59,942 nt of DNA from a virus (IMGVR_UViG_3300045988_167837); one strand, 5' to 3'. Shown: positions 5,222 to 43,920, numbered from the stretch's first letter. Program-made: numbers and translations. Notes: generated by a model not told the origin, from the sequence alone.

Positions 5222-5235
5222 AAACAAGTTGTTTT
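5222..5235 (-). promoter_or_regulatory. conserved palindromic motif AAACAAGTTGTTTT (copy 1), about 30 nt upstream of a start codon
   Basis: Near-perfect palindrome AAACAA-N-TTGTTT recurring upstream of several minus-strand genes. Confidence 0.3.
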
Positions 5236-5500
5236 CTTATTGTCTTTATTGTGATGTGGCATAAAAGGGGAGCAAGCTAAACGTAAAGGTGCAAACTCTC
5301 TATTTCGGTCAACGAAACACAAGGGCCATTTGGCCCTTGTCATTAACACTTTGCTTTACGAACTAACGGATAAGCGAAGTAGATCGCCAAACCAATGAGG
5401 ACGCCATCAGAAATGACAGACATCATCTTTCCCGTAAAATCCACCAACACCGCCATCACCAGAAGAGCAATGACGATCACAAGCCGGAATCTCTCAAGCA

Positions 5501-5926
5501 TTAGAGATAAGCATCCAGTGACAACTGAAGCGCCTGGGCGATCTTTTTCAGTGCCTGCTCTTCTTGTTCACCAATGCCGTCCTGATCGGCAATATCAAGG
5601 CACAGACACAGAACATCGACCGCCTCTGGAGTACCCGCAATATCAGACAGCTCACGAATAGCCTGTGCATTAGCAGAACGAGGGGACGCTTCGTAACGAG
5701 CACGGATATTGGCGCTCATTTGGGCAATTTCACCAGCAAACGGAGAAAACGCAGGCAGAGCTGCAATTGTCTTCTCAAGAATGGCAATTTCTTTTGCGTC
5801 ACATGTGCCGTCGGCATAGGAGATCATGTACGCGCCCCACACGGTGGCCTCAACCGCATCACGGTTCTCCATTTTTTTGACTTCGATAACAGCTTTACGA
5901 GTTTTCTTTTTGAAGAAACCTAACAT
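5501..5926 (-). CDS. hypothetical protein, possibly TerB-like (141 aa)
   Basis: ORF with acidic helical C-terminal region; weak resemblance to TerB/DjlA-N-type domains from memory only. Confidence 0.4.
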   Translation of the reverse strand: MLGFFKKKTRKAVIEVKKMENRDAVEATVWGAYMISYADGTCDAKEIAILEKTIAALPAFSPFAGEIAQMSANIRARYEASPRSANAQAIRELSDIAGTPEAVDVLCLCLDIADQDGIGEQEEQALKKIAQALQLSLDAYL

Positions 5927-5950
5927 GTGCTTTCCTTTTATTATTTGTCA

Positions 5951-5964
5951 AAACAAGTTGTTTT
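5951..5964 (-). promoter_or_regulatory. conserved palindromic motif AAACAAGTTGTTTT (copy 2)
   Basis: Same motif as at 5222, again just upstream of a minus-strand start codon (5926). Confidence 0.3.
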
Positions 5965-6019
5965 CTAATTACATAAATTGCTTACGCAGAGATGGTCAAT
6001 GCATATGCACTAACAGCCG

Positions 6020-6208
6020 TCAGAAATAACCAAGTACCGAACCAACTGGAAAAACAAAAATCCCAACTACACGAGCCAAGGTCATGCCAGCCTGAAACTG
6101 GAGATCGCCAGAGCAAACAAGTTTTATAATGTTCGATACCCAACCGGCGGCCATAAGGGCAAGAATTGCCAGCCAAATTTTTCCAAAGTGATTTGAAAAC
6201 CAGTTCAT
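6020..6208 (-). CDS. small hydrophobic protein (62 aa), putative membrane protein
   Basis: Short ORF rich in hydrophobic residues (WLAILALMAAGWV...VVGIFVFPVGSVLGYF). Confidence 0.3.
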   Translation of the reverse strand: MNWFSNHFGKIWLAILALMAAGWVSNIIKLVCSGDLQFQAGMTLARVVGIFVFPVGSVLGYF

Positions 6209-6217
6209 ACAACCGCC

Positions 6218-6712
6218 TTAGTCACAGCATGATCCTGAGTAACTGGATGAACTTGAGGTATCGCATCCACCGCCATCCCATCCAGAGTGACAGGACGCTC
6301 CACTGGAGTGGTGGTAATTGTCGTCGACGAAGGTGTGGTGATGGATGAATCCGGCATCAAAAGGCTCTGACCGGCTGGAACGGCTACCGTCGCCAGTGAA
6401 ACTATAATGAGAACGTAGGCCATTGGTTTCAGCCTCTTTCTTTGAAAATTTTCCATTCGAACTGTCCTTGTTGTTTTTCTCCTTCACTAAAGGCCGTGCA
6501 TTTTTCGCTTCGCGTGAAGAACCAGAGGCAACAATCGCCCCCACGTTCGCAACAACTGACGCTTGATTATCTAAACGTTCATTCAGCAACCGAACGGTAG
6601 TCTCTAGTTCATCAAGGCGTGACATAACACGACCGCTAAATAATTCGGCCAAAATTTGACGTAAAGAACGAGGACGTTTAGTTACAGAAGTGAAATAGGT
6701 TTGACGTGCCAT
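6218..6712 (-). CDS. hypothetical protein (164 aa; 3' portion overlaps alternative ORF 6205..6456 encoding a putative signal-peptide protein)
   Basis: Longest ORF in region; C-terminal half is low-complexity (Ser/Gly/Cys-rich) so the true gene may end earlier with 6205..6456 a separate small secreted protein. Confidence 0.3.
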   Translation of the reverse strand: MARQTYFTSVTKRPRSLRQILAELFSGRVMSRLDELETTVRLLNERLDNQASVVANVGAIVASGSSREAKNARPLVKEKNNKDSSNGKFSKKEAETNGLRSHYSFTGDGSRSSRSEPFDAGFIHHHTFVDDNYHHSSGASCHSGWDGGGCDTSSSSSYSGSCCD

Positions 6713-6860
6713 GTGGACTCCATCCAGTGTCAGAAAGAGTTGCGGCTGGCGATTGCCAGCCGCCTTTCTCGTTCCATCCTGGAACTGTGTCTTACCGACA
6801 CATTGTCATCCTGACGCCGATAAGATACATGATTTAAAATGATAGGTAAACACTTACTTA

Positions 6861-7451
6861 CTATTTATTATAAACAAAACCAATATCTTTCTTGTGAGGC
6901 ATATCTGCTGCTGAAAAAGCTGCGATCTTCGCGAGTCGATCACATATTTCATTTTCACGATGCCCGGCGTGACCTTTAACCCACTTCCAGCGAACATTAT
7001 GTCGACTTGCGGCCTCATCCAGACGCTTCCACAGATCAACATTCTTTACCGGTTTTTTGTCAGAAGTCATCCATCCATTGCGTTTCCACCATTTCATCCA
7101 CTGTGTCATGCCGTTTTTCAGATACTGGCTATCAGAGTGCAAAATAACGTTGCATGGATATTTCAAACGCTCCAGCCCGATAAGTGCCCCCATCATCTCC
7201 ATGCGGTTATTGGTGGTGCTATGAAAACCATCTGAGAACTCGCGTTCCTCACCACGATACTGGAGAACGATACCGTAACCGCCCGGGCCACCCGGATTTT
7301 TAAGGCAAGAGCCATCACTAAAGATTTTCACGGTTTTAAGCTGGGGATTGAACTCTACGACAGGCGTTGTGGGATTGGTGCGGGGGGAATTTTTGTTTTT
7401 GGCTTTTTTGCGAGTTTTTGCTTGCGATCGGGCTGGTGTCTTCGTCGTCAT
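6861..7451 (-). CDS. rnhA: ribonuclease H (RNase HI-like) with basic N-terminal extension
   Basis: RNase H core motifs IFSDGSC...NPGGPGGYG...ERE...HSDSQY...GHAGHRENE; start set at internal Met (MTTKTPARS) of the 224-aa ORF. Confidence 0.8.
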
Positions 7452-7535
7452 ATAAACTCCTGAATCAAGCGCCGCGCCGATTTTTCCTCGCGCGTGCGCA
7501 CACGCGTGCGTGTTAATAATTATTAAAATAAACAA

Positions 7536-8033
7536 ATTACTTCCCAGAACAGGTTTTTATAAACCTGAACTGAACGAACGAAGTGAGTGAAGTTCACCTC
7601 GAACGAAGTGAGAGGTTGTCTTTTCAGGTAATACTCTCCCAGGGAGGTGAGTATAAAAATCTCTCACCAACCTGGTCGTTTCATAACCTGAAAAGTTATG
7701 GTCTAAGTCTACTGCCAGCTTAGACTTGGGAAGTTATGGATGACAGCACCCCAGAACCGAGATCTTCCCACACTTTATGAAGGGGAGTACTGGATTCAAC
7801 CTCTCGAAACACCCCAGACTCGACAATCATAAAGTGACCCTTGTCTCTGCTCACTTTGGTTCCCCCTTCCCCGACACCTAAACGGCACCAGTTCTACGCT
7901 GGTAGTGAGCTTTTTTAAACCTGACGCCAGTGACGCTTACCCCCACCCATCAGGTCGAGTCTCCAGTCTACGACTGGAAACTATCAGATCTTAGCACTTA
8001 CAATTCACTTTATGAATAGTTTGTACTTATCTA
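7536..8033. other. about 500-bp ORF-free region with internal direct and inverted repeats (candidate structured RNA or cis-acting site)
   Basis: No ORF of 60 aa or more; repeated GAACGAAGTGAG, AAGTTATGG and several short stem-loops. Confidence 0.3.
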
Positions 8034-8288
8034 TCATTGTGATTGATTATTTTCTCTACCATGTAGTTGAACATTCAAGGCAAACACCTCATTGATCAAC
8101 TCACCTAAAAGCTGTTCAACAAGTTCGCGATGCTCGCCAAGATGCAAGCACTTAATTGCCCATTCGTACAAGTTGAAAGCCTGCTCACGATCTTTCATCA
8201 TTTCACGAGCCTGGGCCAGAAAATCGCTCTCTACGAGCGCAACGACATTAGTCGGGTATGACATGTTGGTTTCCTTAAAGTGGTTCAT
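8034..8288 (-). CDS. hypothetical protein (84 aa)
   Basis: Short ORF, no motif. Confidence 0.3.
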   Translation of the reverse strand: MNHFKETNMSYPTNVVALVESDFLAQAREMMKDREQAFNLYEWAIKCLHLGEHRELVEQLLGELINEVFALNVQLHGRENNQSQ

Positions 8289-8449
8289 AAAATCGATTTT
8301 AAAGCGTCTGGGAAGGGGTTCTAGTGGATTCTGTTGTGATGTTCAGGTCTGGAGTCTCTGATACAAAACAGCCTGCTTCCGTATATTAATAATTAATATG
8401 TAGTTATTTATATATACAGAAGCAGGCTAATTACAGACGCCAGAACAAA

Positions 8450-9043
8450 CTAAGCAGCCTTCTTTGATGGTCTTTTTTTCCTGATCACATTCGCAGGATC
8501 ATACCCTCCCAGACTTTTCATGACGTCCAAAGGGATCTTGCTTATAGAGTGCCCAGCGTCCTGACAGAATCCTCGAAAAACAACGAGCATACTGCCACCT
8601 GGGTTGATGTTTACTTCTACCTGACCCAGATTTACGTCAGGCTCGACAAACGCTACGCGGCCACCAGACAGAATAATCGTCTCATTCGCACACTCTGTTG
8701 CACGCTCATACCACTTTGTATCTAGGGATTGAGGAATTAGCATCACTGTTGTAACTCCGCGAGCCTGCTCACGTATAGCCGCATCAATCCAGGGGTAGAT
8801 TTTGGAGTAGGGTGGATTGAGGAAGGCAATTGTACCTGGCTGTCCCCATTCAGATTTCAAAGCATCACGCTCAACGCCTATGAAATTAGGCAGCTTTGCA
8901 TTGTCCTTGTTGCAGGCAACGTCAACATCAAATGTCACTCCAAGATAACGTTGAATGGCAGAAAACAGCCAGTCAGGTGTTCTCCAGAGGTCACGAAGAG
9001 AGTTGTCACGCTTTCGCTGTTTGATTTTTTCGGCTGCAATCAT
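8450..9043 (-). CDS. dam: phage-type DNA N6-adenine methyltransferase (Dam-like)
   Basis: 197 aa with WRTPDWLF N-terminal motif and FLNPPY catalytic motif typical of small phage Dam-family MTases. Confidence 0.75.
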   Translation of the reverse strand: MIAAEKIKQRKRDNSLRDLWRTPDWLFSAIQRYLGVTFDVDVACNKDNAKLPNFIGVERDALKSEWGQPGTIAFLNPPYSKIYPWIDAAIREQARGVTTVMLIPQSLDTKWYERATECANETIILSGGRVAFVEPDVNLGQVEVNINPGGSMLVVFRGFCQDAGHSISKIPLDVMKSLGGYDPANVIRKKRPSKKAA

Positions 9044-9105
9044 CTTCTTTCTCGATAGGTAAGTAAATACCTATTTTTGCATTTGATTTTATGTCTGGCA
9101 ATCAA

Positions 9106-9152
9106 ATAAAACGCGCCAGAAATGCAAACGAGAAGCTCTCTGGCGCGTTTTT
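9106..9152 (-). terminator. hairpin terminator downstream of acidic-protein gene
   Basis: 11-bp inverted repeat AACGCGCCAGA / TCTGGCGCGTT with T-rich flank on the minus strand. Confidence 0.45.
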
Positions 9153-9226
9153 GTGGTGCTGGGTATGTGATTGGCTTACCCAGTACTATAAAGCTCTCTA
9201 TGGGCTTTATTTTAAGTAGGGGAACG

Positions 9227-10036
9227 TCATCCAATAGTGTACTCCGCGACAAACTTCTTAACGATCGGTGATTCTTCGTTCAATGTTAGATTTCCACCGT
9301 CTCTAACGGCAATTCCTGTCGCTGGAAATACAGCCATCATTTGCCCAGCCTGAGTTGACGCAGTGTTAAGCGGATACGGTTTTTCTGGATTGCTCATTAA
9401 AGCAATCTTAATACTATTACTTGTAGCCTTCTTTTCTGTGAGAAGGTGTCTCATGGAAATTACCGTGTAAACACTAATATCTGGACCTCCGCTAAACCAA
9501 TTAAGAAGGTTTAATATCTTATCCTTTGCTTTGACAGGCGCGTTATCGTAAGCGTCTAAGAAAATATCTTTTTCTAAGCCCGCTTTATTGAAAAACGAAT
9601 CATCTTTATCACTTAAAGTAAAACGAGGACCTCTTGCAGTACGAGCTTTTTTATTTGTATTGCTATCATTTGACTGTTGAACTTTTAATTCATCATTAAC
9701 CTCAACACACTCTTCAACCTCAATAAATCCCAATTGTTCTGGCTCGTTTTCGGCAGCTTCAACACTTTCAGCGTTAATTACGTTTATAGGCTCATGCGCT
9801 AACTCCAACTCATTTAAAGCAGAGCTGAAATCACCTGCTTTTTCTTCATTGAAAAGTTCTTCGGCAACATCATCAGAACTCATGGCTACGCCAGCATCTA
9901 GGCCGAGCAGCAGATCGTCAATATCATCAGTATTTTCAACCTGTGCAGCTTTTTTTACTGGTTCATCAAGTGATTGCAACATGGCTGTCAGCTCGTCCAG
10001 ATCATCATTTGTCATTACATTTTCAACCGAACTCAT
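9227..10036 (-). CDS. highly acidic protein of unknown function (269 aa)
   Basis: N-terminal about 110 aa extremely D/E-rich; no catalytic motif. Confidence 0.5.
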   Translation of the reverse strand: MSSVENVMTNDDLDELTAMLQSLDEPVKKAAQVENTDDIDDLLLGLDAGVAMSSDDVAEELFNEEKAGDFSSALNELELAHEPINVINAESVEAAENEPEQLGFIEVEECVEVNDELKVQQSNDSNTNKKARTARGPRFTLSDKDDSFFNKAGLEKDIFLDAYDNAPVKAKDKILNLLNWFSGGPDISVYTVISMRHLLTEKKATSNSIKIALMSNPEKPYPLNTASTQAGQMMAVFPATGIAVRDGGNLTLNEESPIVKKFVAEYTIG

Positions 10037-10194
10037 GTAAGTCTCCTTCTGTTTGGTTACATTTGCGTTTCGATGGCTGCATTTTGACTAAACCTATCAG
10101 GCGGAAAAGTATTAAATACAGGCAGAAAATGATTGAAAGGCGACTGTTCTTTAAAAAAAAGCCTACTTTAAACTTTTTAAAGTAGGCTTTTGTT

Positions 10195-10752: not shown

Positions 10753-10761
10753 CAGAACTCC

Positions 10762-11181
10762 TTACAACTTCTTAGCGCCCTTAAGTAGTGCGCTACGTAC
10801 AAATTGAGCCGCTTTTTTCAAAGTTTCTTCACTGGTTTCACAGACAATCGGATCTTTCCACTTACCTGACACAGTGTTGAGAATATTGATTTGGTTGCTA
10901 TCCAGACAAACAGAGATATAAAGCACTGTGCCACCAGCCAGCATCAAATGCATAGGAAACAGAGGCTTTTTACTGCCTTCACTGAACTGAGACATGGCGA
11001 TGTTAATGGCTTCACCCACTTGTGTACCAACAAGCCCCTGCGCAGTTTCGAATATGGCACGAATAGCCAGACGAGCCTCTCGATCGCTCATAAGCGACCG
11101 GGAATGTTCGTCCGCTACACGAATCAAAGCCTCTGTTGTTTTCCGATCCAGTTCATCTTCAAGCAACATTTCACTAAACAT
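10762..11181 (-). CDS. hypothetical protein (139 aa)
   Basis: ORF tightly packed between neighbours. Confidence 0.45.
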   Translation of the reverse strand: MFSEMLLEDELDRKTTEALIRVADEHSRSLMSDREARLAIRAIFETAQGLVGTQVGEAINIAMSQFSEGSKKPLFPMHLMLAGGTVLYISVCLDSNQINILNTVSGKWKDPIVCETSEETLKKAAQFVRSALLKGAKKL

Positions 11182-14996: not shown

Positions 14997-16139
14997 TTAC
15001 AGGTCTGCAAACTGGCTTAGAGAAGCCTTATCCACGGTAGAATCGATCTGACCTACCAGATATGTGCTTTGCTCTGCCTCTTGTGGTGCAATTTGCAGTG
15101 TGTCGGTTAACAACCACTTGTTCATCCAGACCAGCGGGTCAGTGGTAACTTCTGGAAATAAAGCCTTCAGGCCAAGACGATTCATAGCCAGATTGGTGCG
15201 GTATTTTACATAGGTTTTGAGAATATCCGCGTTTAAACCAATCATCGAACCGTCTTTGAAGAGATAGTCTGCCCAGTTCATTTCTTGTTCGGCGACTGAT
15301 TTCATGGTGTCGTAAATGACGTTTTCTTCATCAGCAGCAATCTCTTTCCACAATAAACCTTCGCGACCGGTACGCATGAAGCGGATCATGCGTTCAGTTC
15401 CTTCGCAATGCAGAGCTTCATCACGGGCAATAAAGCGCATAATTTTGGTGTTACCCTCAAGCAACTTCCGTTCACCAAAGGCAAACGTACATGCAAAACT
15501 TACGTAGAAACGGATCGCCTCAAGCGCATTAATGGACACCAACGTGCGGAAAAGCTGACGATGCAAAGGGTATGGCTCCCAGCCATATTCATTTACGTAC
15601 AGACGCTCAAATTCCTTCTCACCTAACGACTGGCGCTCGCAGGTCATCCCATAAAGCCTGTCATATTCAGCAGAGATACTGATCGCTCGGTTGATGATTT
15701 CTTCATCCGTAACAATACCGTCAAAAACAATGCTCGGATCGTCCACCATGCCACGAATAATGTGGGTGTAGCTGCGGCTATGGATAGTCTCAGAGAAAGA
15801 CCACGTTTCAACCCACGTTTCCAGTTCAGGAATAGAGATAAGCGGCAGCAGCGTTGCATTTGGGCTACGTCCCTGAACTGAATCGAGTAACGTTTGATAA
15901 CGGAGATTGCTCAGAAAAATGTGACGTTCGTGGTCCCGCAGCTTCGTGTTGAAGTCGATACGATCGCTCGAAATATCAACTTCTTCCGGCCGCCAGAAGA
16001 AAGACAATTGACGTTCAATCAACTTTTCAAAATCACGGTATTTTTGCTGATCGTAACGTGCCACGTTGACAGATTGTCCGAGGAACATAGACTCTTTGGT
16101 TGCATCATTAGCACCCAAACGGAACGTTGAATATGACAT
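14997..16139 (-). CDS. nrdB: ribonucleotide reductase class Ia beta subunit
   Basis: Strong similarity to remembered E. coli NrdB ([35 protein letters not shown]-terminal tail); start set at MSYSTF inside ORF 14997..16175. Confidence 0.9.
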
Positions 16140-16169
16140 GTGTTTTTCCTTTTTCTTTTTTATGTGTTT

Positions 16170-16181
16170 AAACAAGTTGTT
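16170..16181 (-). promoter_or_regulatory. conserved palindromic motif AAACAAGTTGTT (copy 3, second half-copy at about 16191-16202)
   Basis: Same motif family as 5222/5951, upstream of nrdB. Confidence 0.3.
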
Positions 16182-16244
16182 ATCTTATTTGTTTAAACAA
16201 GGCTTACAAATCAAAGAGAAGGTGGGGATACACCCCACCATATG

Positions 16245-18599: not shown

Positions 18600-18633
18600 A
18601 TGTTAATAGATAAGCACTTACCTATCAATGAGA

Positions 18634-22137: not shown

Positions 22138-23177
22138 AAAATATCCAACTTGCTCAGATCAAATCCGCCGTCAGTATCGTGGACAATCTTGCAATAAGCA
22201 GATACCGACTCTCCCAGGCTATCGATTTTGCTGGTTTCCGTTGTGCTTGCTGTCCCTTCCATCATTGATGACTTACGGATGAAGTTGCACACGACACCTT
22301 TTGCACCCATTGTTTTGAGGATGTTCTGGTACTTAATGCCTTCTTCATCGTTCTCAATTACGGCGCGGAAACGCACGTAGTTGCCGCGAATTTGGTCATC
22401 GGCAACATAATCTTCCAGGTTAATGAATTTAGGCGCACTGGTTTCGTAGTGACTGAAACTGCCGTCCGGGTTTACGATCATGTAACCAGCCAGAGATCCA
22501 ACATCTCCCCAATTTTGATGGGTCAGCGCACCGACACTGATAACTCCAGGAATGACCTCTTTGTGGTTGTGGTAATGCCCACTAAGCACGAGACGAAAGC
22601 CGATATCCTTTAACTCCTGCGCATCGATACCGACGTCAGGCATTGTTGGAATGGCTTTGTTAATGGATGTATGGATAACAACGTCATGGTTATCACCTTC
22701 TACGCTCTTACGTAATGCTTTCAGATCGCTGATAAGCTCCGCATGATTGTTACGCCAGCTAATCAGGTGGACAGTCACATCACCAATTTTTATTGAGTGT
22801 GGGCGCTTGCCACATACGATTACCACGCCGATAGAACTCAGCGATGCTGCTGCGTTGGCGCTATATACTGAATCGTTGGTTTCAAGATCGTGATTACCGG
22901 CCAGCATTACTACTGTCAGATCAAGCTCGTTGATAATCCACTTGTACGTTTCAGTTACGTAATGCAAAACAGAAGGGGACACAGTTCCTCGGACGTGAAA
23001 TGTATCACCGGCAACCAACATGTACTTACAACCGGCCTTCTTCATGGCGATGGCTGCTTCTTTCGTTGCTTCCAACTGTATTTCAAGTCTGGAGTTAAGC
23101 CCCTCTGCGTTCGTCGTGGAGAACGCATCCCATTTGTGGTAGTGGCAGTCAGAAATGACGCCGTATGGCAAAGTCAT
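22092..23177 (-). CDS. sbcD: SbcD/Mre11-like nuclease
   Basis: Calcineurin-like phosphoesterase motifs ISDCHYH, VAGDTFH, GNHD, SGHYHNH. Confidence 0.8.
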   Translation of the reverse strand: MTLPYGVISDCHYHKWDAFSTTNAEGLNSRLEIQLEATKEAAIAMKKAGCKYMLVAGDTFHVRGTVSPSVLHYVTETYKWIINELDLTVVMLAGNHDLETNDSVYSANAAASLSSIGVVIVCGKRPHSIKIGDVTVHLISWRNNHAELISDLKALRKSVEGDNHDVVIHTSINKAIPTMPDVGIDAQELKDIGFRLVLSGHYHNHKEVIPGVISVGALTHQNWGDVGSLAGYMIVNPDGSFSHYETSAPKFINLEDYVADDQIRGNYVRFRAVIENDEEGIKYQNILKTMGAKGVVCNFIRKSSMMEGTASTTETSKIDSLGESVSAYCKIVHDTDGGFDLSKLDILCQEILTEAESSEAV

Positions 23178-23431
23178 GTGTTTTTCCTTTGTGGTTATTT
23201 TGATACAAATTTTAAGAGCAATGAGAAGGTAAACAACTATGCATAACGGTATGTTAGGAATGAAACGAGCGTCTTAATATACAAAACTTATAAGTAAGTA
23301 TATACCTATTTATTGTGGCGCAACTTTGCTTGTCTGTATGACTAAAAATAAGACAGGATCACTGTAGAACGCTATGAGAGCTATTTTGAGGAGGCGTAGA
23401 TTCTATCTACGCCAATATACGATCTGGAGGG

Positions 23432-26619: not shown

Positions 26620-26834
26620 GCCACGACTCCTTTGAAAACGCCTAATGCTGAGTCGAAGACCAGTACTACGGCCAGCGCATTGATCATCACATCATTAACA
26701 GGCGCCAGCGCTTTACGGATTGCCCCTGTGAAGATGCAGTCGAGCACAAAGGCTATCGAGATAATAAGTAACGTGATATCTAATAAAATTTTCACGATAG
26801 GTAAATGCTAACTTATATATTTTTGCTGTAAATA

Positions 26835-27110: not shown

Positions 27111-27289
27111 GTGTTTTCTCCTTGTTGGTAAGTACTTATCTATCTTAATGGGCGCTATAAGGCGCACAATCATTGTGTTCAGGCTGGTGGAAAGAACTTC
27201 TCCAGCGTGTGGTTGATAGCCTTATCAATGTGCATCAGGTGCCAGACGATCATATCTTTGCTTCCAATGCCGCGAGTGTAGATGAAGTG

Positions 27290-36668: not shown

Positions 36669-36674
36669 TGAAAA

Positions 36675-39014
36675 TTAATCTTCTAATTCATCTGTCGGTG
36701 ATGTCTTCTCGCGCCTGTCATCTATTGCCTGTAACGCAGCAATGATTTCAGCTAATGGCTTCTCCCGGTACATCTCGACGATCTGTGATTTGGTGTATTT
36801 CTTCTCGCCAATTTCCACACGCCCGCTGGCGCTCTTGGGCAGGTATCCTTCCTCCAGCATGTATTCAACCAGAGACTCGACGACGTCCAGCCCGCGAGTC
36901 GGGTCGAAGTAGAATTTCCATGAGCATTTGCCAAACGGAGGCGCGACTTTGTTTTTAATGCACTCGGCGCCAACGTCCTGTCCGATCTTCTCTTTGCCAT
37001 CCTTCATGACGGATGCACCCAGACGGATGCGCACCGACGCGTAGAACTTCGGAGAGTCGCCACCCGGAGACGTAGTCGGATCGCCAAACATCACACCAAT
37101 TTTGGTACGCACCTGGTTCAAGAAGATGATGCACGCGTTGTACTTACGCGCCCAAAGCGCCAGAGTAGGGAAGTTCGCACTTGTCGCGCGCGCCAGCGCC
37201 GTGTTGTCGTTCATGTTCAGCTGATCTTTGTCTTTCGCAGTGCCTTCTGCCATCTTGTCGAACTTCTCAGCCTTCGAGTTCGGAACCATCGACGCCAGAG
37301 AGTCGGCTACGATGCAGATAGGGGCTGTTTCCGGAATAAGCTCTTCGTCGCGCACCAGCTTGAGGATTGTGCCGATCAGCTCTACGGAGTCTTCGAAGGT
37401 ATCCGGCTGTTTGTAGACCCACTGACCGTCATCCTCATCTGCGTTCAGGCCATTGGCTACAGCCAGGCCAACGTCAAAACTGTTTTCATGATCGAGGAAT
37501 ACCGCCAGACCATCTTGTTTTTGAGCGGAGATCATCGCTGCTGTTGCAAGGAATGTGTTGTGGCTGATAATCCCGTTAGACCAGAAAGAGTGTGTTTCCG
37601 GCATCGCTACGTCGAACGTTGGTGCTTCACCTTCCTCAATAGCCACGACTTCGTCGTAGAACAAGTTAGAGCCAATTACCGCTGCCAGTTGTGCAAACAG
37701 ATGCTCGTTAAAACGATTCTTTCTGCCAATGAAGGAGACATAGATTTCTCGCAGTTTGTCTATTCCGACACGATCGCCGCGGCCAATAACGTGGTCTACC
37801 AGAGCGTAGTCTTCACGGGTGGTCTTGGTGAGCGACTCGTAGAGTGATTTCACTAAGCCGCTGATGTGCGGAACATAGCCTGAGTAAGTGCGGTCAAAAC
37901 CAATGTCCCGTTTGGTTGCCACTGATAAACGTGCCGGAGATTCGAAACCAATCGTTGACAGAAAAAGGTCGTAATTAGAGCCACTGAATGACAGCCGGTA
38001 ATATGTATTTTCATAACCCGCGACGTGTTTTTCAGAGATAGTTGACGTAATCCCCAGATTCAGGAGCATGAGGCGAATTTGCTGTAGCAGCAGCCCACTC
38101 GCGCTCACAACCTCAATGCAGCGACCATCATTGACGTGGCATTCCAGCTCAAAGTAGCCGCGAAGGAATGCAATTTGAGCCTCGCTATTGGCGCGACGCA
38201 CACTCAACGGAACCTGCTTGCCAGCAGCTTTCTCATACTCCAGACCATATTCTTTAAAAAGCAGCGAACGCACCTCTTTGCTAAACAGCACATGGTCTTC
38301 CGAGCCGTTATGTTTTCTCGTAACTGGCATCTTGTCTGATACCAGCGAAATGAGGCGGTAGTACTCATCCTTGATGAAAGGATCTGTGTTAGAAAAATTC
38401 ACTGAATTTTCAGAGGCGACGTATCCGTCAGCAATTAAATAGCCCATCAGTTTTGCGATATTGGCATCCAGGTGCTGATCGCCGAATTGATGTGTGCCAA
38501 CCATTGAAGGAATCGTGTCGCCTACACTGATTTTTTCAGCATGTCGCCAGACGACATTACCTAAGTCGTCAACCACACGGATTGGGTGACGGAACGTAGC
38601 CTCGATATAACCGCCTGATGCCAGCTTAATACGCTTGAATTTGCGACGGTTGTTCCATGTCAGGTGTGAGGTCTTCTCTATCACGCCATTTTCATTGATG
38701 AGTCCAACGTTATGCTCTACATCGCGAGTAGTGCATGTCGCTTTGTACCCTTCAATCTCAAACAACTCTTTCACTGTTACCATTCCACGCTCCGTCAGCA
38801 GCATGGTGTCTGCGGTAACACATTTCCCTGCACTTGGAGGACCGAATACTTCGACGATACGACCACATGGGAAGCCGCCATCGTAACGACCAGAAATAGC
38901 TTTGTTTAACGGTGGAAAGCCTGTATCAATCCAATGAGTTACTTTCTGAATTTCGTCGTTGCTACCGATTTTCTTTTTCAGAGCAAGTGCCAGTGCGGAT
39001 TTTCCTTTTGCCAT
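36675..39014 (-). CDS. recA: RecA-family recombinase containing an in-frame intein
   Basis: Exteins align with remembered RecA (GRIVEVFGPPSAGK / TFLATAAM..., IIFLNQVRTKIGVMFGDPTTSPGGDSPKFYASVR, KNKVAPPF); 422-aa insertion between Lys64 and Thr of the Walker A motif. Confidence 0.85.
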   Translation of the reverse strand: MAKGKSALALALKKKIGSNDEIQKVTHWIDTGFPPLNKAISGRYDGGFPCGRIVEVFGPPSAGKCVTADTMLLTERGMVTVKELFEIEGYKATCTTRDVEHNVGLINENGVIEKTSHLTWNNRRKFKRIKLASGGYIEATFRHPIRVVDDLGNVVWRHAEKISVGDTIPSMVGTHQFGDQHLDANIAKLMGYLIADGYVASENSVNFSNTDPFIKDEYYRLISLVSDKMPVTRKHNGSEDHVLFSKEVRSLLFKEYGLEYEKAAGKQVPLSVRRANSEAQIAFLRGYFELECHVNDGRCIEVVSASGLLLQQIRLMLLNLGITSTISEKHVAGYENTYYRLSFSGSNYDLFLSTIGFESPARLSVATKRDIGFDRTYSGYVPHISGLVKSLYESLTKTTREDYALVDHVIGRGDRVGIDKLREIYVSFIGRKNRFNEHLFAQLAAVIGSNLFYDEVVAIEEGEAPTFDVAMPETHSFWSNGIISHNTFLATAAMISAQKQDGLAVFLDHENSFDVGLAVANGLNADEDDGQWVYKQPDTFEDSVELIGTILKLVRDEELIPETAPICIVADSLASMVPNSKAEKFDKMAEGTAKDKDQLNMNDNTALARATSANFPTLALWARKYNACIIFLNQVRTKIGVMFGDPTTSPGGDSPKFYASVRIRLGASVMKDGKEKIGQDVGAECIKNKVAPPFGKCSWKFYFDPTRGLDVVESLVEYMLEEGYLPKSASGRVEIGEKKYTKSQIVEMYREKPLAEIIAALQAIDDRREKTSPTDELED
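37557..38822 (-). other. intein (422 aa) with LAGLIDADG homing-endonuclease domain, inserted in RecA P-loop
   Basis: Starts with Cys (codon 38820-38822; CVTADTMLL), has TFRHP block-B-like motif, LMGYLIADGYV and FLRGYFELECHV motifs, ends ...SNGIISHN (Asn codon 37557-37559) followed by Thr. Confidence 0.8.
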
Positions 39015-39016
39015 GA

Positions 39017-39289
39017 TCAGGCTCCTTTTGTTTCGTTGATTCGTTTTAAAGCGGCGGATTCATCGAATACAATCGCATCGTGGTTAAGGAGTCTGGATAC
39101 ACGAGCGAGGATTTTTACGACCTGCTCGCTGACTAATCCAAACTCGCGATCTGTCGCTTTCATTCCGGCAGCGCCTAGAATTGACGGCAGTGCGATGACA
39201 GCGTACTCACCGTGATAAAAGACAATCTCTTTTGCCAGTTGGGCAGGGGTGGTTGTAGCGCCATTAATAATTGATTTAAGCATTAGCAA
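39017..39289 (-). CDS. hypothetical protein (90 aa)
   Basis: ORF between flap-endonuclease and recA genes. Confidence 0.35.
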   Translation of the reverse strand: MLMLKSIINGATTTPAQLAKEIVFYHGEYAVIALPSILGAAGMKATDREFGLVSEQVVKILARVSRLLNHDAIVFDESAALKRINETKGA

Positions 39290-40278
39290 TACCTTTCGAA
39301 TGGAAGAACATACACTTCAAGGTCTTCAAGGAACGAACGGAAATTCAGCTCGTAGCACAGTTGCTCGAATGCTTTCACGTCACGATTGCCTTTGATTGTT
39401 TCGATTTCGGTAGGCGGAAACTTCGTCTCAATCAGGTTCATTAGCGTGATGTTTCTCTTGAACGCTTCGAGCATTCGACAGCCTGTTTTCTCGTTGAAGG
39501 CATTCTTCGCTAGTTTGTTGAAGGCGGTCTTATGGCGTCCTTTGTCAACCACGATTGAGCCGTCGTTGATGCCGCGTACCATCGTTGCGACACTTCCCCA
39601 TTCATGCAGCAGCTCTTTCGCACCGCCAGCACCAATGCCACCAACACCGCTAATGTTGTCCGATTTATCGCCTTGTAATGCTTTTGCTTCCAAAAATGCG
39701 CGAGGAGTAGCGAATCCTGTCAGCTCCGCAAATTGCTCAAAATTAACCTGCTTGTTTTTGGCGTCTTCACGCAGGCTTACCCAGCTTACGTTTTCACGAA
39801 CTAACTGAAGCCAGTCGCTATCGCCTGTTAACAGATAGATGTGTTCAACGGTTGGCTGCGGTGCCATGCGGGATACCAGCAGCCCGGCCAGATCATCCGC
39901 TTCTGCATCTTTTGCAATGAGTTGGGTAACTCCAAGCGCGGTCATCATTTTGAGGATGTATGGCTTCTGGATAGCAAAGCCTTCCTTCATCTTTTTCATA
40001 TCAGGATCGTCGTCGCGATTTGCTTTGTAGTCCGGGTAAAAGTCGCGACGCTTGTCACTAAATCCATCCCAAAGAATCATAGGTCGGGCATGGAGGATGG
40101 AGGCATAACGACGGACGTTCTTAACAAAGCCGAAAGCAGCCTGTACTTCCATTTCGCCGTTGTGCAATTTGTCAGATTGTTGGTGGTAATAACCCAGGCT
40201 ATTGCCATCTACGAAGAGATAATTCACCGGTACATTCCTTCCAAAAAGTAAGGCGTCCGTAGACGCCTTACTGGTCAC
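39283..40278 (-). CDS. 5'-3' exonuclease / flap endonuclease
   Basis: N-terminal LFVDGNSLGYY and ADDL...TGDSDWLQL motifs typical of the 5' nuclease family, C-terminal GIGAGGAKELL helix-hairpin-helix-like region. Confidence 0.75.
   Translation of the reverse strand: MTSKASTDALLFGRNVPVNYLFVDGNSLGYYHQQSDKLHNGEMEVQAAFGFVKNVRRYASILHARPMILWDGFSDKRRDFYPDYKANRDDDPDMKKMKEGFAIQKPYILKMMTALGVTQLIAKDAEADDLAGLLVSRMAPQPTVEHIYLLTGDSDWLQLVRENVSWVSLREDAKNKQVNFEQFAELTGFATPRAFLEAKALQGDKSDNISGVGGIGAGGAKELLHEWGSVATMVRGINDGSIVVDKGRHKTAFNKLAKNAFNEKTGCRMLEAFKRNITLMNLIETKFPPTEIETIKGNRDVKAFEQLCYELNFRSFLEDLEVYVLPFERYC
40250..40270 (-). terminator. rho-independent terminator after SSB-like gene
   Basis: AAGGCGTC-CGTAG-ACGCCTT followed on minus strand by ACTTTTTGG. 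Confidence 0.5.
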
Positions 40279-40287
40279 GTAATGGGA

Positions 40288-41316
40288 TTACAGAGAGTCC
40301 AGCTCTCTCAGTAGGTCATCCAGACCTTCATCTTCCGTCGCAGATGCGGCTGCTACAGATGTCGTTGCGACTGCTTCAGACTCTTTGACTGATACTGCAA
40401 CGGCAGCGGGACTTGCTTCTGGTTTAAATTCAGTTTCAACGGCACGGAGGATTTCTTCATCAACCAGACTGGTTGGTTCAGAAGCTGGGGTATGAGCGGT
40501 AGCTACAGCAGTCGCACCCTCCGTATGACCAGTGACAGAGCCAAATCCAGGTAGTGCCGCAGCCGATGTTTTCGCGGTTGAGGAAATTGCTGGTGCAGAT
40601 GCTGCGGCAGTTGGTGCAGCGATGCCAATCAGACGACCCATAGTGCGAACTGTCGACAGAAGACGAGTTTCATCAGCCTGATTTGCGTATGCGATCAGAT
40701 CATGCTGGGTATTCCAGAATTTATCTTCGATATCGCCTTTGTAGACTTTACGCTTAGGCGAGACGTCATATTTGGTATCGCGACCAGAGCCAGTACGTTT
40801 AATCAGGAATGCGTAGCCTTCCTCTTTGCTCAGTGGATTGCCGATATCATCAGCGATGTCTTCGGTGATTGCTTTGCAGATATCATCGAATACAGTAGAC
40901 GGCAGCTCGATTAACTGGCATTTCTCAGCATCTGCGAAATCCTCACGAGCAGAAAGAATGCCGTTGACCAGGTAGCGAGGAGTGGCACGCATTTGACCGA
41001 TGCGTTCTTCCATTGCTTTGTTACCCTTGTGACGAGCGCGACCTTCCATCACCATTTCGCATAGCTGACAAGCGCGACCGTGAGTATGTTGCTCACAAAT
41101 ATAAGCGTTGGTTGCTTCTTTACCTTCCTCGTTCTGATACTTAACGTAGTGCATACCGAAAGTCTGGAAGAACTTACCGTTTGGGTCGTCTTTATTCGGG
41201 AAGATGCGGATATAGTTGACGCCGTCTTTTAAGCGAGTCAGATCAACGTTGTTACCACGTTTGGCGGCAATGTCTTCACGAGTTTTGTTAAGCAAATCAA
41301 GTAATGTCTTAGACAT
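40288..41316 (-). CDS. putative single-stranded DNA-binding protein (gp32-like) with acidic C-terminal tail
   Basis: Cys/His cluster (CEQHTHGRACQLC), Ala/Ser/Thr-rich linker and acidic C-terminus EDEGLDDLLRELDSL typical of SSB interaction tails. Confidence 0.45.
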   Translation of the reverse strand: MSKTLLDLLNKTREDIAAKRGNNVDLTRLKDGVNYIRIFPNKDDPNGKFFQTFGMHYVKYQNEEGKEATNAYICEQHTHGRACQLCEMVMEGRARHKGNKAMEERIGQMRATPRYLVNGILSAREDFADAEKCQLIELPSTVFDDICKAITEDIADDIGNPLSKEEGYAFLIKRTGSGRDTKYDVSPKRKVYKGDIEDKFWNTQHDLIAYANQADETRLLSTVRTMGRLIGIAAPTAAASAPAISSTAKTSAAALPGFGSVTGHTEGATAVATAHTPASEPTSLVDEEILRAVETEFKPEASPAAVAVSVKESEAVATTSVAAASATEDEGLDDLLRELDSL

Positions 41317-41433
41317 GTGTTTCTCCTTGTTGTGATTTGGCCGATGGCGCTATGCGCGTTGGGCTTTCGTTCATTCGTGGCTCTTTCGAGCTGTTAAATG
41401 ATAGATCAGTACTTACTTATTATCTATCAAAAA

Positions 41434-41889
41434 TCAACGGGGAGTAATAAAGCGTTCAGAGCCTAATCGCTCTAATTCAACGATGGCCATCTTTGACGCC
41501 TGAACGATCATGTCTCGGCGATGCGAAAAGGCGGCGACAGCATGTTTGTATATGTCTGCGATGTGCCGTGCTTCATCCAACTTCTGCCTTTTAGACAGAT
41601 ACTGTGGGTTTGTTTTAACCTTAGCGTCCAGTACAGATTCGTTGAACTTAATGCCGTTCATACTCAAGTTCTTACGCTCTGTGTCGTATAGCTTTGCTTC
41701 AACAGCTTCAAGGTTAAGTTTTGCCTCTGCGACACTTCTTTCTGCATGAGCGAGTTTTGAGCCATACTCCATTAAAAGGCGGGGTTGTCTACGCCAGACT
41801 TCCTCCAGATTGTCTCGGTCAAACTCGAGATCAGACATTATTTTCTCGTAAATATCGGCGATCATGCACATTTCCTTATCACTTATCAT
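41434..41889 (-). CDS. hypothetical protein (151 aa)
   Basis: ORF with coiled-coil-like composition. Confidence 0.45.
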   Translation of the reverse strand: MISDKEMCMIADIYEKIMSDLEFDRDNLEEVWRRQPRLLMEYGSKLAHAERSVAEAKLNLEAVEAKLYDTERKNLSMNGIKFNESVLDAKVKTNPQYLSKRQKLDEARHIADIYKHAVAAFSHRRDMIVQASKMAIVELERLGSERFITPR

Positions 41890-41962
41890 TTTGTATTGAT
41901 TATATCATTGTAATGATGAGGCAATGAGCTTGAAGATAGGGGGGGTGAGGGGATAAGGGAAA

Positions 41963-41983
41963 ACATGGCCTTTATGGCCATGT
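41963..41983 (-). terminator. hairpin after dnaE C-terminal gene
   Basis: ACATGGCC-TTTA-TGGCCATGT with T-rich flank on the minus strand. Confidence 0.45.
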
Positions 41984-41991
41984 TTATTGGA

Positions 41992-43161
41992 TCACGTCTT
42001 AATAGTTTCTGCTACGTCGGCTAATATCGCTTCTAGTCGTTCTCCCTCTTCAGGTCTGAAGTAAAGAATGTTGGGGTTAAACCCGTAAAAGACAGTAACG
42101 TCAAGGTCTGGAAGATACTCCTTCCTGCCGACCAAATCGGATGGCTTGTTTTTGTTGTTAAACAATGAAGTTGCCCGGCTGCCACACGTCAGCACATAGG
42201 TCGGACGCACCAGATTGATCTCTTCACGCATAAAGTCGGTGAACTGGCCGATCTCGTCTTTGGTGTAGTCTTTTTCTTTGTCTTTAACCTTCTTGCAAAC
42301 ACCTGTGACATAGAGATCGCCCATGCGTAAATCTCCAGCCGTCAATAGCTTGGCCTTAAAGTCGTCGTATCCGTTCTCCATAAAGTAACCGGTTCGAGCA
42401 TCATTGCCGTTCGCATTGTCCAGAATGATCATGATTTTCGGCTTAATACCAATGCTGGGGCGGATTAGTTCATCACCTAAGCCCATTTCAGCCGCCATCC
42501 GCGTCATGAGTACGTTAATTTCAGCCGAACGTTTGGGGTTCATCTCAAACGGACGTGAGGCTTTAACTGCGTCTATGACAAGGTTTCCCATCAATTCAGC
42601 CTGGTCGCGTAGGCGCTCTGGATCAGTTGCTGGCAGACTGCCTGGCTCGATGGATGCAAACGCCCCTACTTTTTGCAGCGATTCGCGCACTCGACTATTA
42701 CAGGCACGTTTCTCGACAGCTTCTTCGAATTGCGCCAGTGACTCGAATTTGCCGCCAACTTTTTCTCGCGCTCTCATGATGGCTTGGCAGCCATTCTCAG
42801 AACACCCCTTCACAGCAGAGAAGGGCGCATACAGCACCTGGCTGCCATCTTCAAGCGTGCGGATCTCGATTCGGTTAGATGACACGTTAACGTCTGGTGG
42901 CAATACGCGAATGCCATAGGTCAGCGCATCTTTAACCAGCCCCTGGTGTTTATCTTCGCCAAGAATAGTGAGAGCAGCAGCGAAAAACTCTGCGGGATAA
43001 TGAGTTTTCAACCACATAGATTGATAACTGATTAAGGAGTAAGCAACAGAGTGTGATTTGTTGAAGGCATACGCGCCGGATTTCTCAAACATATTCCAGA
43101 TTTCTTCGGCTCGTTCGTGCGTCAGGCCATTGCTCTCTTCGACAACACCGGTAATTTTCAT
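41992..43161 (-). CDS. dnaE: DNA polymerase III alpha (DnaE-type), C-terminal fragment with own start codon
   Basis: Begins MKITGVVEESNGLTHERAEEIWNMFEKSGAYAFNKSHSVAYSLISYQSMWLKTHYPAEFF, the conserved DnaE finger motif; ATG overlaps stop of HNH gene. Confidence 0.8.
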   Translation of the reverse strand: MKITGVVEESNGLTHERAEEIWNMFEKSGAYAFNKSHSVAYSLISYQSMWLKTHYPAEFFAAALTILGEDKHQGLVKDALTYGIRVLPPDVNVSSNRIEIRTLEDGSQVLYAPFSAVKGCSENGCQAIMRAREKVGGKFESLAQFEEAVEKRACNSRVRESLQKVGAFASIEPGSLPATDPERLRDQAELMGNLVIDAVKASRPFEMNPKRSAEINVLMTRMAAEMGLGDELIRPSIGIKPKIMIILDNANGNDARTGYFMENGYDDFKAKLLTAGDLRMGDLYVTGVCKKVKDKEKDYTKDEIGQFTDFMREEINLVRPTYVLTCGSRATSLFNNKNKPSDLVGRKEYLPDLDVTVFYGFNPNILYFRPEEGERLEAILADVAETIKT

Positions 43162-43892
43162 GCAGTCACCTCATCAATCTTCACGAACTCATACCCATTG
43201 GAGGCCAGCCAGTTCCGTTGGCGCTCCCAGCTCCATATCTCTTCACGCATTTCACTATGCAGGCGAATGTGGGCGTCTTCTGGAAGTGCTACAAGATTCC
43301 CAGGGGCGTTATCTATCGTATCGCGGTTAATATGGTGGACATGTTCATCGTCACGTAGCTCCCGACCGAGACGTTCTTTCGCTATCAATCGATGAACGTA
43401 TTCGTATTGCGAAACGCCATTGTTACCAACCAGCTGCATCATGTAGCCGTTGGTTTTTACGATGATGCCACCTTTGTAGTTGTTCGCTTCTTCTCCGATC
43501 TTTCCGCGTTTGGCAGCCGCCAGCTTTTCCTTCGTCTCCGCGCGGATTGTTCTGCCGGTTAGCTTTTTCGAAACGGTGGCCACTCGCTCATCGATATCAG
43601 CACGCAGACCGGCATTCCACGAGGTTTTCCCATACATAGGGTTGCCAGTGCCAGTCCGGGCTTCGGAGAGACGCTTCATACGTTCGTCATTATTTTTGTT
43701 TTTGCCACGATTCCAGGCTGGGGTAGCGGAGATCCGCGCGCTTCCGCGCCTGATCCCCCATTTGGCTAATAAGCGGTCAATATTTGCCTTGCTGCAACCA
43801 GCTTCGGCGGCAATGTCTTCTTTTCTCATCAGGTCAACCATGTAACGCTGACGTAACCATTCTTCTGTGATTTTGTACTTCGTACTCGGCAT
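43158..43892 (-). CDS. HNH homing endonuclease (with NUMOD-like motifs) located between the two dnaE fragments
   Basis: C-terminal HNH motif EYVHRLIAKERLG...EHVHHINRDTIDNAPGNLVALPEDAHIRLH; GNPMYGKT-type motifs. Confidence 0.8.
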   Translation of the reverse strand: MPSTKYKITEEWLRQRYMVDLMRKEDIAAEAGCSKANIDRLLAKWGIRRGSARISATPAWNRGKNKNNDERMKRLSEARTGTGNPMYGKTSWNAGLRADIDERVATVSKKLTGRTIRAETKEKLAAAKRGKIGEEANNYKGGIIVKTNGYMMQLVGNNGVSQYEYVHRLIAKERLGRELRDDEHVHHINRDTIDNAPGNLVALPEDAHIRLHSEMREEIWSWERQRNWLASNGYEFVKIDEVTA

Positions 43893-43907
43893 TTCTAAGA
43901 CTCACTA

Positions 43908-43920
43908 AACAAATTGTTTT
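43908..43920 (-). promoter_or_regulatory. conserved palindromic motif AAACAAATTGTTT (copy 4), upstream of HNH gene
   Basis: Variant of the AAACAA-N-TTGTTT palindrome between the dnaE N-fragment stop and the HNH start. Confidence 0.3.

Follow-up and report, generated by a model that had tools for sequence, protein, structure and literature searches.

The 59,942-nt stretch of the viral sequence IMGVR_UViG_3300045988_167837 analysed here (the window; all positions are counted from its first letter) carries several copies of a 13-base palindrome, AAACAA-N-TTGTTT, composed of two 6-base arms and one central base (6-1-6), which is probably a promoter-proximal DNA operator for a repressor encoded by the element itself. 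Megablast assigned the window to an SSU5-group phage-plasmid of E. coli, with 99% identity to Escherichia phage CMS-2020a, 98% to phage Cyrano (pLF82), and 77% to Salmonella phage SSU5 and to Klebsiella phage-plasmids. The window maps to about 41-91 kb of Cyrano in reversed orientation, which is the reason why nearly all of its genes lie on the minus strand; window sequences at the motif sites are quoted as read on that (gene) strand. Insertions specific to the window, relative to Cyrano, are located at 24.3-36.2 kb, at 41.8-44.1 kb and beyond 52.1 kb. As references, the complete annotated genomes of Cyrano, SSU5 and Klebsiella pJN2-26 were used.

According to the proposed mechanism, the operator would be a pair of inverted AAACAA half-sites, with a centre-to-centre distance of 7 bp, embedded in about twenty promoters of the host RNA polymerase; at a subset of these promoters a second copy would be centred 51 bp upstream, over the -35 region. 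A dimer encoded by the element, or a pair of dimers, would bind these sites and block initiation or early elongation. The genes kept silent in the plasmid-prophage would be those for replication, nucleotide metabolism and recombination, the small early open reading frames (ORFs) and the terS late operon, and the same genes would probably be shut down again later in lytic growth. In this scheme we infer the transcription starts, the binding of a protein, the sign of the regulation and the identity of the binder. The first-pass annotation of the window had proposed an element-specific operator or promoter class controlling a regulon, and this proposal is supported by the intergenic location of the copies, their fixed register relative to -10-like hexamers, the footprints found in six genera, and the absence of the motif from a distant relative.

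The inspection of the window revealed that the four sites already reported are all present where they had been placed, and three further sites (1600-1612, 4508-4520 and 49944-49956) were disclosed. The copies, with their position weight matrix (PWM) scores where available, are the following:

5222..5237 (core 5222-5234), minus strand: operator copy AGA-AAACAACTTGTTT, PWM score 29.7, 18 nt before the ATG at 5203 of a gene of 188 amino acids (aa) (4637..5203, CYRAN_87 homologue); -10-like CACAAT at 5248-5253.
5951..5966 (core 5951-5963), minus strand: operator copy AGA-AAACAACTTGTTT, PWM score 25.6, 24 nt before the ATG at 5926 of a TerB/TciA-like gene (5501..5926); -10-like AGCAAT at 5977-5982.
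16170-16182 (feature 16170..16187), minus strand: operator copy TAACAACTTGTTT in the nrdB promoter, 30 nt before the ATG at 16139.
43907..43922 (core 43907-43919), minus strand: operator copy AGA-AAACAATTTGTTT, PWM score 28.9, 14 nt before the ATG at 43892 of an HNH_3/NUMOD3 gene (43158..43892); -10-like ATTAAT at 43933-43938.
4508-4523 (feature 4508..4539), minus strand: operator copy AGA-AAACAAATTATTT, PWM score 24.9, 12 nt before a DUF4942 gene (2810..4495); extended -10 TGC-GATAAT at 4534-4542.
49944..49956, minus strand: operator copy AAATAATTTGTTT, flank orientation ambiguous, 19 nt before a CobT-like gene (47816..49924).
1597..1612, plus strand: reverse-oriented operator copy AGA-AAACAATTTATTT, abutting a terminator hairpin (1613-1633) and centred about -38 from the next minus-strand promoter.
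1555..1580, minus strand: promoter served by the copy at 1600, with extended -10 TGT-GAAAAT (1575-1580) and a downstream half-site AGAAAACAAC (1555-1564), the latter 51 bp from the 1600 copy, centre to centre.

Matches to AAACAANTTGTTT with at most one mismatch number seven in the window, against 0.37 +/- 0.61 expected (largest count, 2) from dinucleotide-preserving shuffles. In Cyrano, 17 of the 18 matches fall in non-coding DNA together with the first 75 nt of coding sequences (CDSs), where a first-order Markov model of the same AT-rich fraction predicts 0.31 +/- 0.55. Chance and base composition, which the first-pass annotation had set as the alternative to its own proposal, do not account for these numbers. 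The complete genomes of Cyrano, SSU5 and Klebsiella pJN2-26 harbor 18, 20 and 17 copies, respectively (the last counted at a PWM score of at least 16); nearly all of them are located in the 13% of the genome that is non-coding, those with a PWM score of at least 18 are all intergenic or at mis-annotated CDS starts, and the 28-kb block of structural genes contains zero copies.

The anatomy of the site was derived from 36 copies of Cyrano and SSU5 aligned on the gene strand. Both half-sites are conserved at 89-100% per position, and an asymmetric AGA flank is present in 89-92% of the sites, a figure somewhat inflated by the fact that the orientation was picked on that flank. The TCTTAT tail attached to the palindrome in the first-pass annotation corresponds to the gene-strand flank (A)TAAGA in reverse complement. 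A T occupies position -14 from the core in 35 of the 36 sites, preceded by A-rich positions -16 and -15; these represent the end of an nnnAAT hexamer (as an example, GATAAT, GAAAAT, CACAAT, CCTAAT or ATTAAT), and at most promoters the palindrome lies 13 nt downstream of this -10-like hexamer. The distance from the core to the ATG ranges from 12 to about 45 nt; the spacing to the hexamer being constant and that to the ATG variable, the motif is tied to the promoter. One promoter subfamily, to which window positions 4534-4542 belong, shows a near-consensus extended -10, TGCGATAAT. The sigma-70 extended -10 (TGn plus a TATAAT-like hexamer) is found only in a subset of the motif promoters, that is, 4534-4542, 1575-1583 (TGTGAAAAT) and four or five promoters per complete genome, and the remaining ones have weaker hexamers. 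The members of a paralogous subfamily (Cyrano 95.8-98.4 kb and the window promoter at 4508) are alike over about 60 bp; since the T is kept in 12 of the 13 Cyrano sites outside the TGCGATAAT subfamily, the common descent of paralogous promoters is an insufficient explanation for the register. A transcription start about 7 nt past the hexamer would put the palindrome at about +8 to +20; the starts would be expected 5-9 nt 3' of the -10-like hexamers, i.e., 4-8 nt 5' of AGAAAACAA, except at nrdB, where the start would fall within the palindrome.

The orientation is reversed in about a quarter of the copies, which are located right after terminator hairpins, centred about -38 from the next promoter. 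Paired copies separated by exactly 51 bp (about five helical turns) are found in Cyrano (93120/93171), SSU5 (88325/88376), Klebsiella (28545/28596) and Enterobacter L259 (15793/15844), and many promoters with a single copy carry a decayed one at -50 to -53. The variants of the half-sites are symmetric, AAATAA being tolerated in either arm (C3>T and its mirror G9>A), and no compensatory changes between the arms were seen among the Cyrano, SSU5 and Klebsiella pJN2-26 copies. A position downstream of or over the -10, together with the bracketing of the promoter at whole helical turns, is typical of a repressor.

The nrdB promoter deserves a separate description. Here, the additional half-copy mentioned in the first-pass annotation was found to be TTGTTTAAACAA at 16189-16200. 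The operator copy overlaps a TAAGAT hexamer (16182-16187), 16 nt upstream of which lies a -35-like TTGTAA (16204-16209). The block TAAGATAA(C/T)AA(C/T)TTGTTTA, also written CAATAAGATAA(C/T)AA(C/T)TTGTTTA, is invariant in the four aligned genomes. The TTG is conserved in SSU5, in Klebsiella and in the distant Pectobacterium plasmid Drgb1, which shows TTGAGT-N16-GATAAT at the same position; therefore, on the basis of the conserved TTG-N16-TAAGAT arrangement aligned with Drgb1, TAAGAT is the probable -10 of nrdB and the operator would sit over the -10/+1 region. The sole conserved deviation of this copy (T for the first A) completes the hexamer. Such a placement, as read from the sequence, would be compatible with repression and not with activation.

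The comparison of related elements revealed that the motif stays unchanged at orthologous promoters whose flanks have diverged, in SSU5, Klebsiella pJN2-26 and Yersinia pestis pMT1 as well as in Nissabacter and Enterobacter wuhouensis elements, so that the footprint spans six genera of SSU5-clade phage-plasmids and includes three lineages whose ParA partner protein is only 48-64% identical. The orthologous promoters sharing it are those of parA, dnaB, cobT, nrdB, terS, the DUF4942 gene and the small-ORF block, and the non-paralogous ones (parA, dnaB, cobT, nrdB, terS and HNH) have in common only the motif and its register. Plasmid Drgb1, despite the same gene order and a CobS that is 54% identical, contains zero copies, and the motif is therefore clade-specific; the sequence "-10 ... 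TAAGAAAA" is kept by Drgb1 at several of the same promoters. Exact-pattern scans returned, among the matches listed, mostly single chance matches in IMG/VR, where the multi-match contigs (60-112 kb) resemble relatives, and in GTDB one contig with two matches (Kluyvera, 108.7 kb).

Some features adjoining individual copies can be recorded. The copy at 4508 is flanked by a 12-bp inverted repeat, ATAATTACACCA ... TGGTGTAATTAT (window 4490-4545), one arm of which contains the -10-like hexamer and the other the Shine-Dalgarno sequence plus ATG (RNA fold -7.8 kcal/mol, z -1.8); in Drgb1, a similar bracketing repeat occurs, without the palindrome, at the orthologous promoter and at one other. The HNH_3/NUMOD3 gene with its own operator copy (43158..43892) is a free-standing homing-endonuclease gene placed between two parts of the Pol III alpha gene (dnaE), which is split in the window (41992-46304) and uninterrupted in Cyrano: the PHP, polymerase and finger domains are encoded in 43941..46304 and the HHH_6 C-terminal part in 41992..43161. 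Two operator copies separated by 25 bp precede the terS late operon in Cyrano (57-134) and SSU5 (56-133), and a single one does so in Klebsiella pJN2-26 (about 38620-38682); a terminator-like hairpin, AGAGCGC-N6-GCGCTCT, with GTGTGTTTT after it, is located just before the terS Shine-Dalgarno sequence and would point to antitermination as a step in late expression.

A start context, GGAAAAACAC-ATG, had also been assigned to the same class of elements. The shared context is real: with at most one mismatch, GGAAAAACACATG occurs seven times in the window, always at the start of a minus-strand gene, against 0.14 expected:

16137-16149, minus strand: exact start context (nrdB).
5201-5213, minus strand: exact start context.
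23175-23187, minus strand: exact start context.
2746, minus strand: start context with one mismatch.
41314, minus strand: start context with one mismatch.
46302, minus strand: start context with one mismatch.
47718, minus strand: start context with one mismatch.

Its belonging to the operator was not upheld, since it is found mostly at genes lacking the palindrome and is therefore a separate feature. In Cyrano, the leader ends in AAACACATG in 9 of 123 genes, and several of these have in common a longer leader, ...ATAACCACAAAGGAAAAACACATG, which immediately follows a -10-like AAAAT. The start context is a Shine-Dalgarno sequence together with a spacer or leader preferred by the element.

Published RNA-seq data are available for the LF82 lysogen that harbors Cyrano. 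The genes located directly behind the motif are at background, with normalised counts of 5.7-25.5 against a median of 9.8 (PMC9928086, S1 Table): CYRAN_1 7.1, CYRAN_32 21.1, CYRAN_47 7.8, CYRAN_58 5.7, CYRAN_70 12.9, CYRAN_85 7.0, CYRAN_87 7.1, CYRAN_90 7.8, CYRAN_101 7.5, CYRAN_105 12.8, CYRAN_106 12.2, CYRAN_110 6.7 and CYRAN_111 25.5. This holds even behind the TGCGATAAT promoters, which should be strong unaided. The only motif-bearing operon that is on in the lysogen is parA-CYRAN_29-CYRAN_30 (counts of 50, 89 and 55; PMC9928086), as would be expected for negative autoregulation. In macrophage samples, CYRAN_46, the gene divergent from that of a helix-turn-helix (HTH) protein, is up about 90-fold and the motif genes only 2- to 8-fold (PMC9928086).

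As for the protein that might bind the palindrome, our best guess is a ParG/omega-like protein whose gene adjoins parA (the CYRAN_29 homologue), the HTH protein encoded at 50487 being a weaker candidate. CYRAN_29 (119 aa) is encoded directly after parA, outside the window, and displays a disordered basic tail followed by a strand-helix-helix-like pattern; IKSRTMSxEDE and FTRSDVIRAA are invariant across all its homologues. In this more specific version of the repressor explanation, which we advance only tentatively, the sites would be dispersed centromere/operator sites of a type Ib partition system, whose adaptor would bind two inverted 7-bp units; that the same adaptor autoregulates parA and silences the lytic promoters is an equally tentative part of it. 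The 7 bp between the half-site centres match the omega heptad in length, and type Ib partition operons are normally autoregulated by the partner protein binding in the parA promoter. A copy is indeed present in the parA promoter of every lineage, even where the adaptor is so divergent (48-64% identity), and in all six lineages examined it is one inverted pair downstream of TTTACA-N17-TAGGCT; the exclusive expression of the parA operon in the lysogen points in the same direction, and no separate repeat array was seen near parA. On the other side, the known type Ib centromeres are arrays, and a single copy at parA is unlike them. In pMT1, six sites are intact though parA and CYRAN_29 have been lost, a natural experiment that is uninformative because the loss is too recent.

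Some observations weigh against the repressor explanation. The canonical second-position A of the -10-like hexamer is missing in about three quarters of the independent sites, and the promoter register is itself something that we infer. Part of the asymmetric flank may be, on the evidence of the Drgb1 promoters, an older promoter or leader feature rather than a portion of the operator. Drgb1, moreover, keeps an adaptor with an identical putative reading strand and has no dispersed palindrome, only separated half-sites at parA. The strong rise of CYRAN_46 in macrophages, with motif genes remaining low, indicates that relief of the immunity switch alone is insufficient to turn these genes on. 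Finally, silence in the lysogen is equally expected of promoters that depend on an activator.

The latter possibility, i.e., that the palindrome is the site of an early activator, or marks a phage-specific promoter class needing a phage factor, would resemble the Lpa-dependent promoters of P1 or the MotA-dependent promoters of T4, and is judged unlikely. Besides the silence just mentioned, which is nearly maintained even when CYRAN_46 is strongly induced, it can draw on the lack of a conserved -35, on the imperfection of most -10 hexamers and on the upstream copies near -38, which occupy a position like that of class-II activators. However, most copies are located past the -10-like element, 12-30 nt from the ATG, where no -35/-41 placement fits that would still leave a leader with a Shine-Dalgarno sequence; the nrdB site overlaps the conserved -10 and +1; and several promoters possess near-consensus extended -10 elements that should need no activator. 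Sigma-28 promoters, the T4 MotA box and T4 late promoters were considered by eye on their consensus sequences and rejected on spacing or consensus.

The repressor explanation might alternatively involve the HTH protein (window 50487-50873), which adjoins the integrase gene and gives a weak match to HTH_19; this Xre-type protein would be the immunity repressor and the palindrome its dispersed operator. We regard this as decidedly unlikely, and the protein, already put forward in the first-pass annotation for binding assays, ranks behind another candidate. Its gene is expressed in the lysogen (96, against a background of 9.8), SSU5, isolated as a lytic phage, lacks it yet keeps the sites, and the nearest copy (49944) lies about 530 bp from the HTH start, behind the divergent gene. 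Nevertheless, the divergent control region of the HTH gene carries no copy of the motif and has instead a perfect palindrome, GGTAAGCACTTACC, at 50442-50455; Drgb1 retains a similar recognition helix with zero motif copies; and the motif genes barely move in macrophages when CYRAN_46 is induced. Between the HTH regions of E. coli and Klebsiella no block is better conserved than the GGTAAGCACTTACC sequence, which is kept in pMT1 and is replaced by TACTTATATAAGTA in Drgb1, whose HTH protein is 39% identical. Since the palindrome of the HTH control region changes along with the HTH protein, the latter more probably reads GGTAAGTnCTTACC than the 13-mer. The shared regions of pMT1 closely resemble those of SSU5 (with identical flanks at one compared promoter), yet pMT1 keeps the HTH gene, and the loss of the integrase-HTH module from SSU5 therefore looks recent and says little; for this reason, the absence of the HTH protein from SSU5 was withdrawn as a strong argument against its being the binder.

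The GGTAAGCACTTACC core belongs to a second dispersed palindrome, with the consensus aaataA-TAGGTAAGTACTTACCTA-Tcat, whose further copies in the window are the following:

2792-2809: second palindrome.
6843-6860: second palindrome.
9056-9073: second palindrome.
18607-18624: second palindrome.
23291-23308: second palindrome.
26798-26819: second palindrome.
27125-27142: second palindrome.
41402-41419: second palindrome.

Cyrano, SSU5 and Klebsiella pJN2-26 together contain 63 copies with at most four mismatches to the 18-mer; they are intergenic, occupy the early as well as the late (structural) regions, and in many cases terminate with a -10-like TATCAT. Their mismatches are not compensatory and the sequence is therefore probably a DNA site. 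In Drgb1 its centre is altered to TAGGTATTTAAATACCTA. These copies could form the operator set on which the HTH immunity repressor acts, or represent a class of late promoters.

Among the other proteins considered, CYRAN_43, the most abundant lysogen transcript (7084), was rejected as a binder because the window, SSU5 and Klebsiella all lack it; the ParB_N proteins CYRAN_119 and CYRAN_120 were rejected as KorB-like binders, being at background in the lysogen (5.0 and 9.5) and encoded in a packaging-proximal operon. CYRAN_117, ribbon-helix-helix (RHH)-like by eye and expressed in the lysogen, and CYRAN_123, with weak winged-helix matches, are possible binders. As to co-variation, in Drgb1, where the motif is missing, the FljA-like protein (CYRAN_114) and the HTH protein are strongly diverged, and the putative reading strand of the ParA partner is retained; these observations bear on the link between the HTH protein and GGTAAG and do not single out a binder of the 13-mer.

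A control at the RNA level, in which the motif would act in the 5' untranslated region and a translational repressor, either the FljA-family protein CYRAN_114 or a T4 RegA-like factor, would hide the Shine-Dalgarno sequence, appears quite improbable. CYRAN_114 (Pfam Flag1_repress, E 1e-80) is about 40% identical to chromosomal phase-1 flagellin repressors; its gene (Cyrano 100780-101301) seems, by look, to encode two tandem Sm/Hfq-like halves. Characterised FljA proteins block the translation of fliC mRNA (PMC2652032), a mode of action that makes an RNA or host target fit CYRAN_114 better than a DNA palindrome. Elements that carry the motif also conserve the FljA-like protein, which is extremely diverged in motif-less Drgb1, and the predicted position of the motif in the 5' leader often abuts the Shine-Dalgarno sequence. 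On the other hand, the phage-plasmid protein may simply repress the translation of host flagellin, and the spacing of the motif is constant to the promoter and not to the ATG. The palindrome forms no stable RNA hairpin in five of the six 5' leaders analysed (z-scores -0.3, +0.5, -0.5, -1.3 and -0.5), and in the sixth (4508, z -1.8) the flanking arms pair, not the palindrome, which in these folds is weakly paired at most; the commonest variant, G9>A, would break the only G-C pair of a possible hairpin with no compensation; and the reverse copies, about a quarter of the total, lie upstream of promoters and behind terminators, outside the predicted transcripts. An RNA hairpin or riboregulator was rejected on the lack of a palindrome folding signal in the six leaders and on the Rfam gathering scan of the window, which returned only three tRNAs (54903-55146). 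Taken as read from the sequence, this pattern favours the recognition of duplex DNA by a symmetric protein.

Least probable of all, and by our estimate very improbable, is that a host Enterobacterales transcription factor binds the sites, or that a promoter cassette was duplicated without any binding function: elements from six host genera carry an identical motif and the promoters of Cyrano 95.8-98.4 kb and window 4508 are clearly paralogous, but we know of no enterobacterial factor with this site, the non-paralogous promoters share the motif and register only, the motif is conserved where the flanks drift, and it is absent from the Pectobacterium element with the same gene order.

The operator proposed here shares with dispersed operators in general a number of copies far above chance and their confinement to intergenic regulatory DNA. 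The closest system in its logic is that of P1, where the C1 repressor recognizes asymmetric 17-bp operators (ATTGCTCTAATAAATTT), sometimes paired, scattered over the plasmid prophage; in both cases a plasmid prophage carries one short operator at many promoters of lytic-cycle genes silent in the lysogen, whereas the site described here is a symmetric 6-1-6 palindrome of unrelated sequence. No C1-like gene is present in the annotations of Cyrano, SSU5 and pJN2-26, a statement limited to annotations since no C1-directed homology search was run. In its form, the site comes nearest to the KorB operators of RK2 and to the 7-bp units of omega and ParG, and none of these systems agrees with it in sequence. 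In RK2, KorB (a ParB homologue) combines partition and global silencing through 12 OB operators (TTTAGCSGCTAAA), which are likewise 13-bp 6-1-6 palindromes in about a dozen copies per replicon; however, the sequence differs, the ParB_N proteins are silent here, and OB sites are located upstream of or far from promoters, in contrast with the fixed position downstream of the -10. Omega of pSM19035 and ParG of TP228 are RHH partners of type Ib ParA proteins that also repress promoters. The likeness extends to a small protein with a flexible tail encoded after a ParA of about 220 aa, an operator in the parA promoter, 7-bp units that may be inverted, and several target promoters; the difference lies in arrays of seven or more units at about three promoters versus one inverted pair at about 20, and the RHH fold of the candidate is putative. 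The stoperators of L5 gp71 are 13-bp oriented sites, about 30 in number, located in short intergenic spaces downstream of transcription starts; unlike the present sites, with their symmetric core and fixed -10 register, they are asymmetric and need no promoter. N15, a linear phage-plasmid with a type Ia SopAB system, has four dispersed SopB sites near phage promoters, and is thus comparable as a phage-plasmid whose scattered partition-protein sites affect phage expression; it differs in having four sites of another sequence, and the centromere role of the sites described here is putative. The motif strings were not found in the literature searched, nor was such an operator described there for SSU5, pHCM2 or phage-plasmids (one 2026 preprint was judged by its wording only). 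The regulon of SSU5-type elements thus appears not to have been previously described, although a dispersed repressor operator is, as an arrangement, textbook knowledge.

The window also differs from Cyrano in its gene content. The segment 24264-36201 (about 12 kb) has no nucleotide similarity to Cyrano except for one 77% patch, codes for a different RepA (49% identical) along with four large ORFs (1005, 387, 443 and 821 aa), holds zero operator copies, and probably represents an insert with a cargo or defence role. A GC-rich segment (0.65) at 55361-58327, with flanks to about 59942, codes for a 988-aa transposase of the Tn3 family (TnAs1-like) and matches thousands of resistance plasmids at an identity of at least 99%, which indicates that a transposon was inserted into the phage-plasmid. 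The AT-rich segment 52100-54400 (GC 0.36), with two ORFs lacking a Pfam match (178 and 302 aa), replaces the CYRAN_43 locus and adjoins the cluster of three tRNAs. Conversely, about 3.9 kb of Cyrano (85861-89723, CYRAN_93-98), corresponding to window 1379-1570, is not in the window; it includes an S24-peptidase-only (UmuD-like) gene strongly expressed in the LF82 lysogen. Lastly, the CYRAN_81 homologue (about 7720-7854) is a 44-codon ORF with a GTG start, whose protein is 98% identical in SSU5 and 91% in Klebsiella; the CYRAN_81 locus is among the few expressed in the lysogen (117 against 9.8) and might represent either a small RNA or a small regulatory protein.

Phage-plasmids of the SSU5 type occur commonly in clinical E. 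coli, Salmonella (pHCM2), Klebsiella and Yersinia pestis (pMT1), and carry resistance genes; an account of the control of lysogeny and lysis in these elements was not found in the literature searched. The operator provides a concrete regulon (nrdB, dnaB, parA, cobT, terS and the small early genes), a bait for its regulator, and a handle on whether partition and lytic silencing are coupled. It is conceivable, if doubtful, that the ParA partner reads the palindrome and silences about twenty lytic promoters, the scattered operators doubling as a dispersed centromere; if this were true, plasmid segregation and the maintenance of lysogeny would be one circuit.

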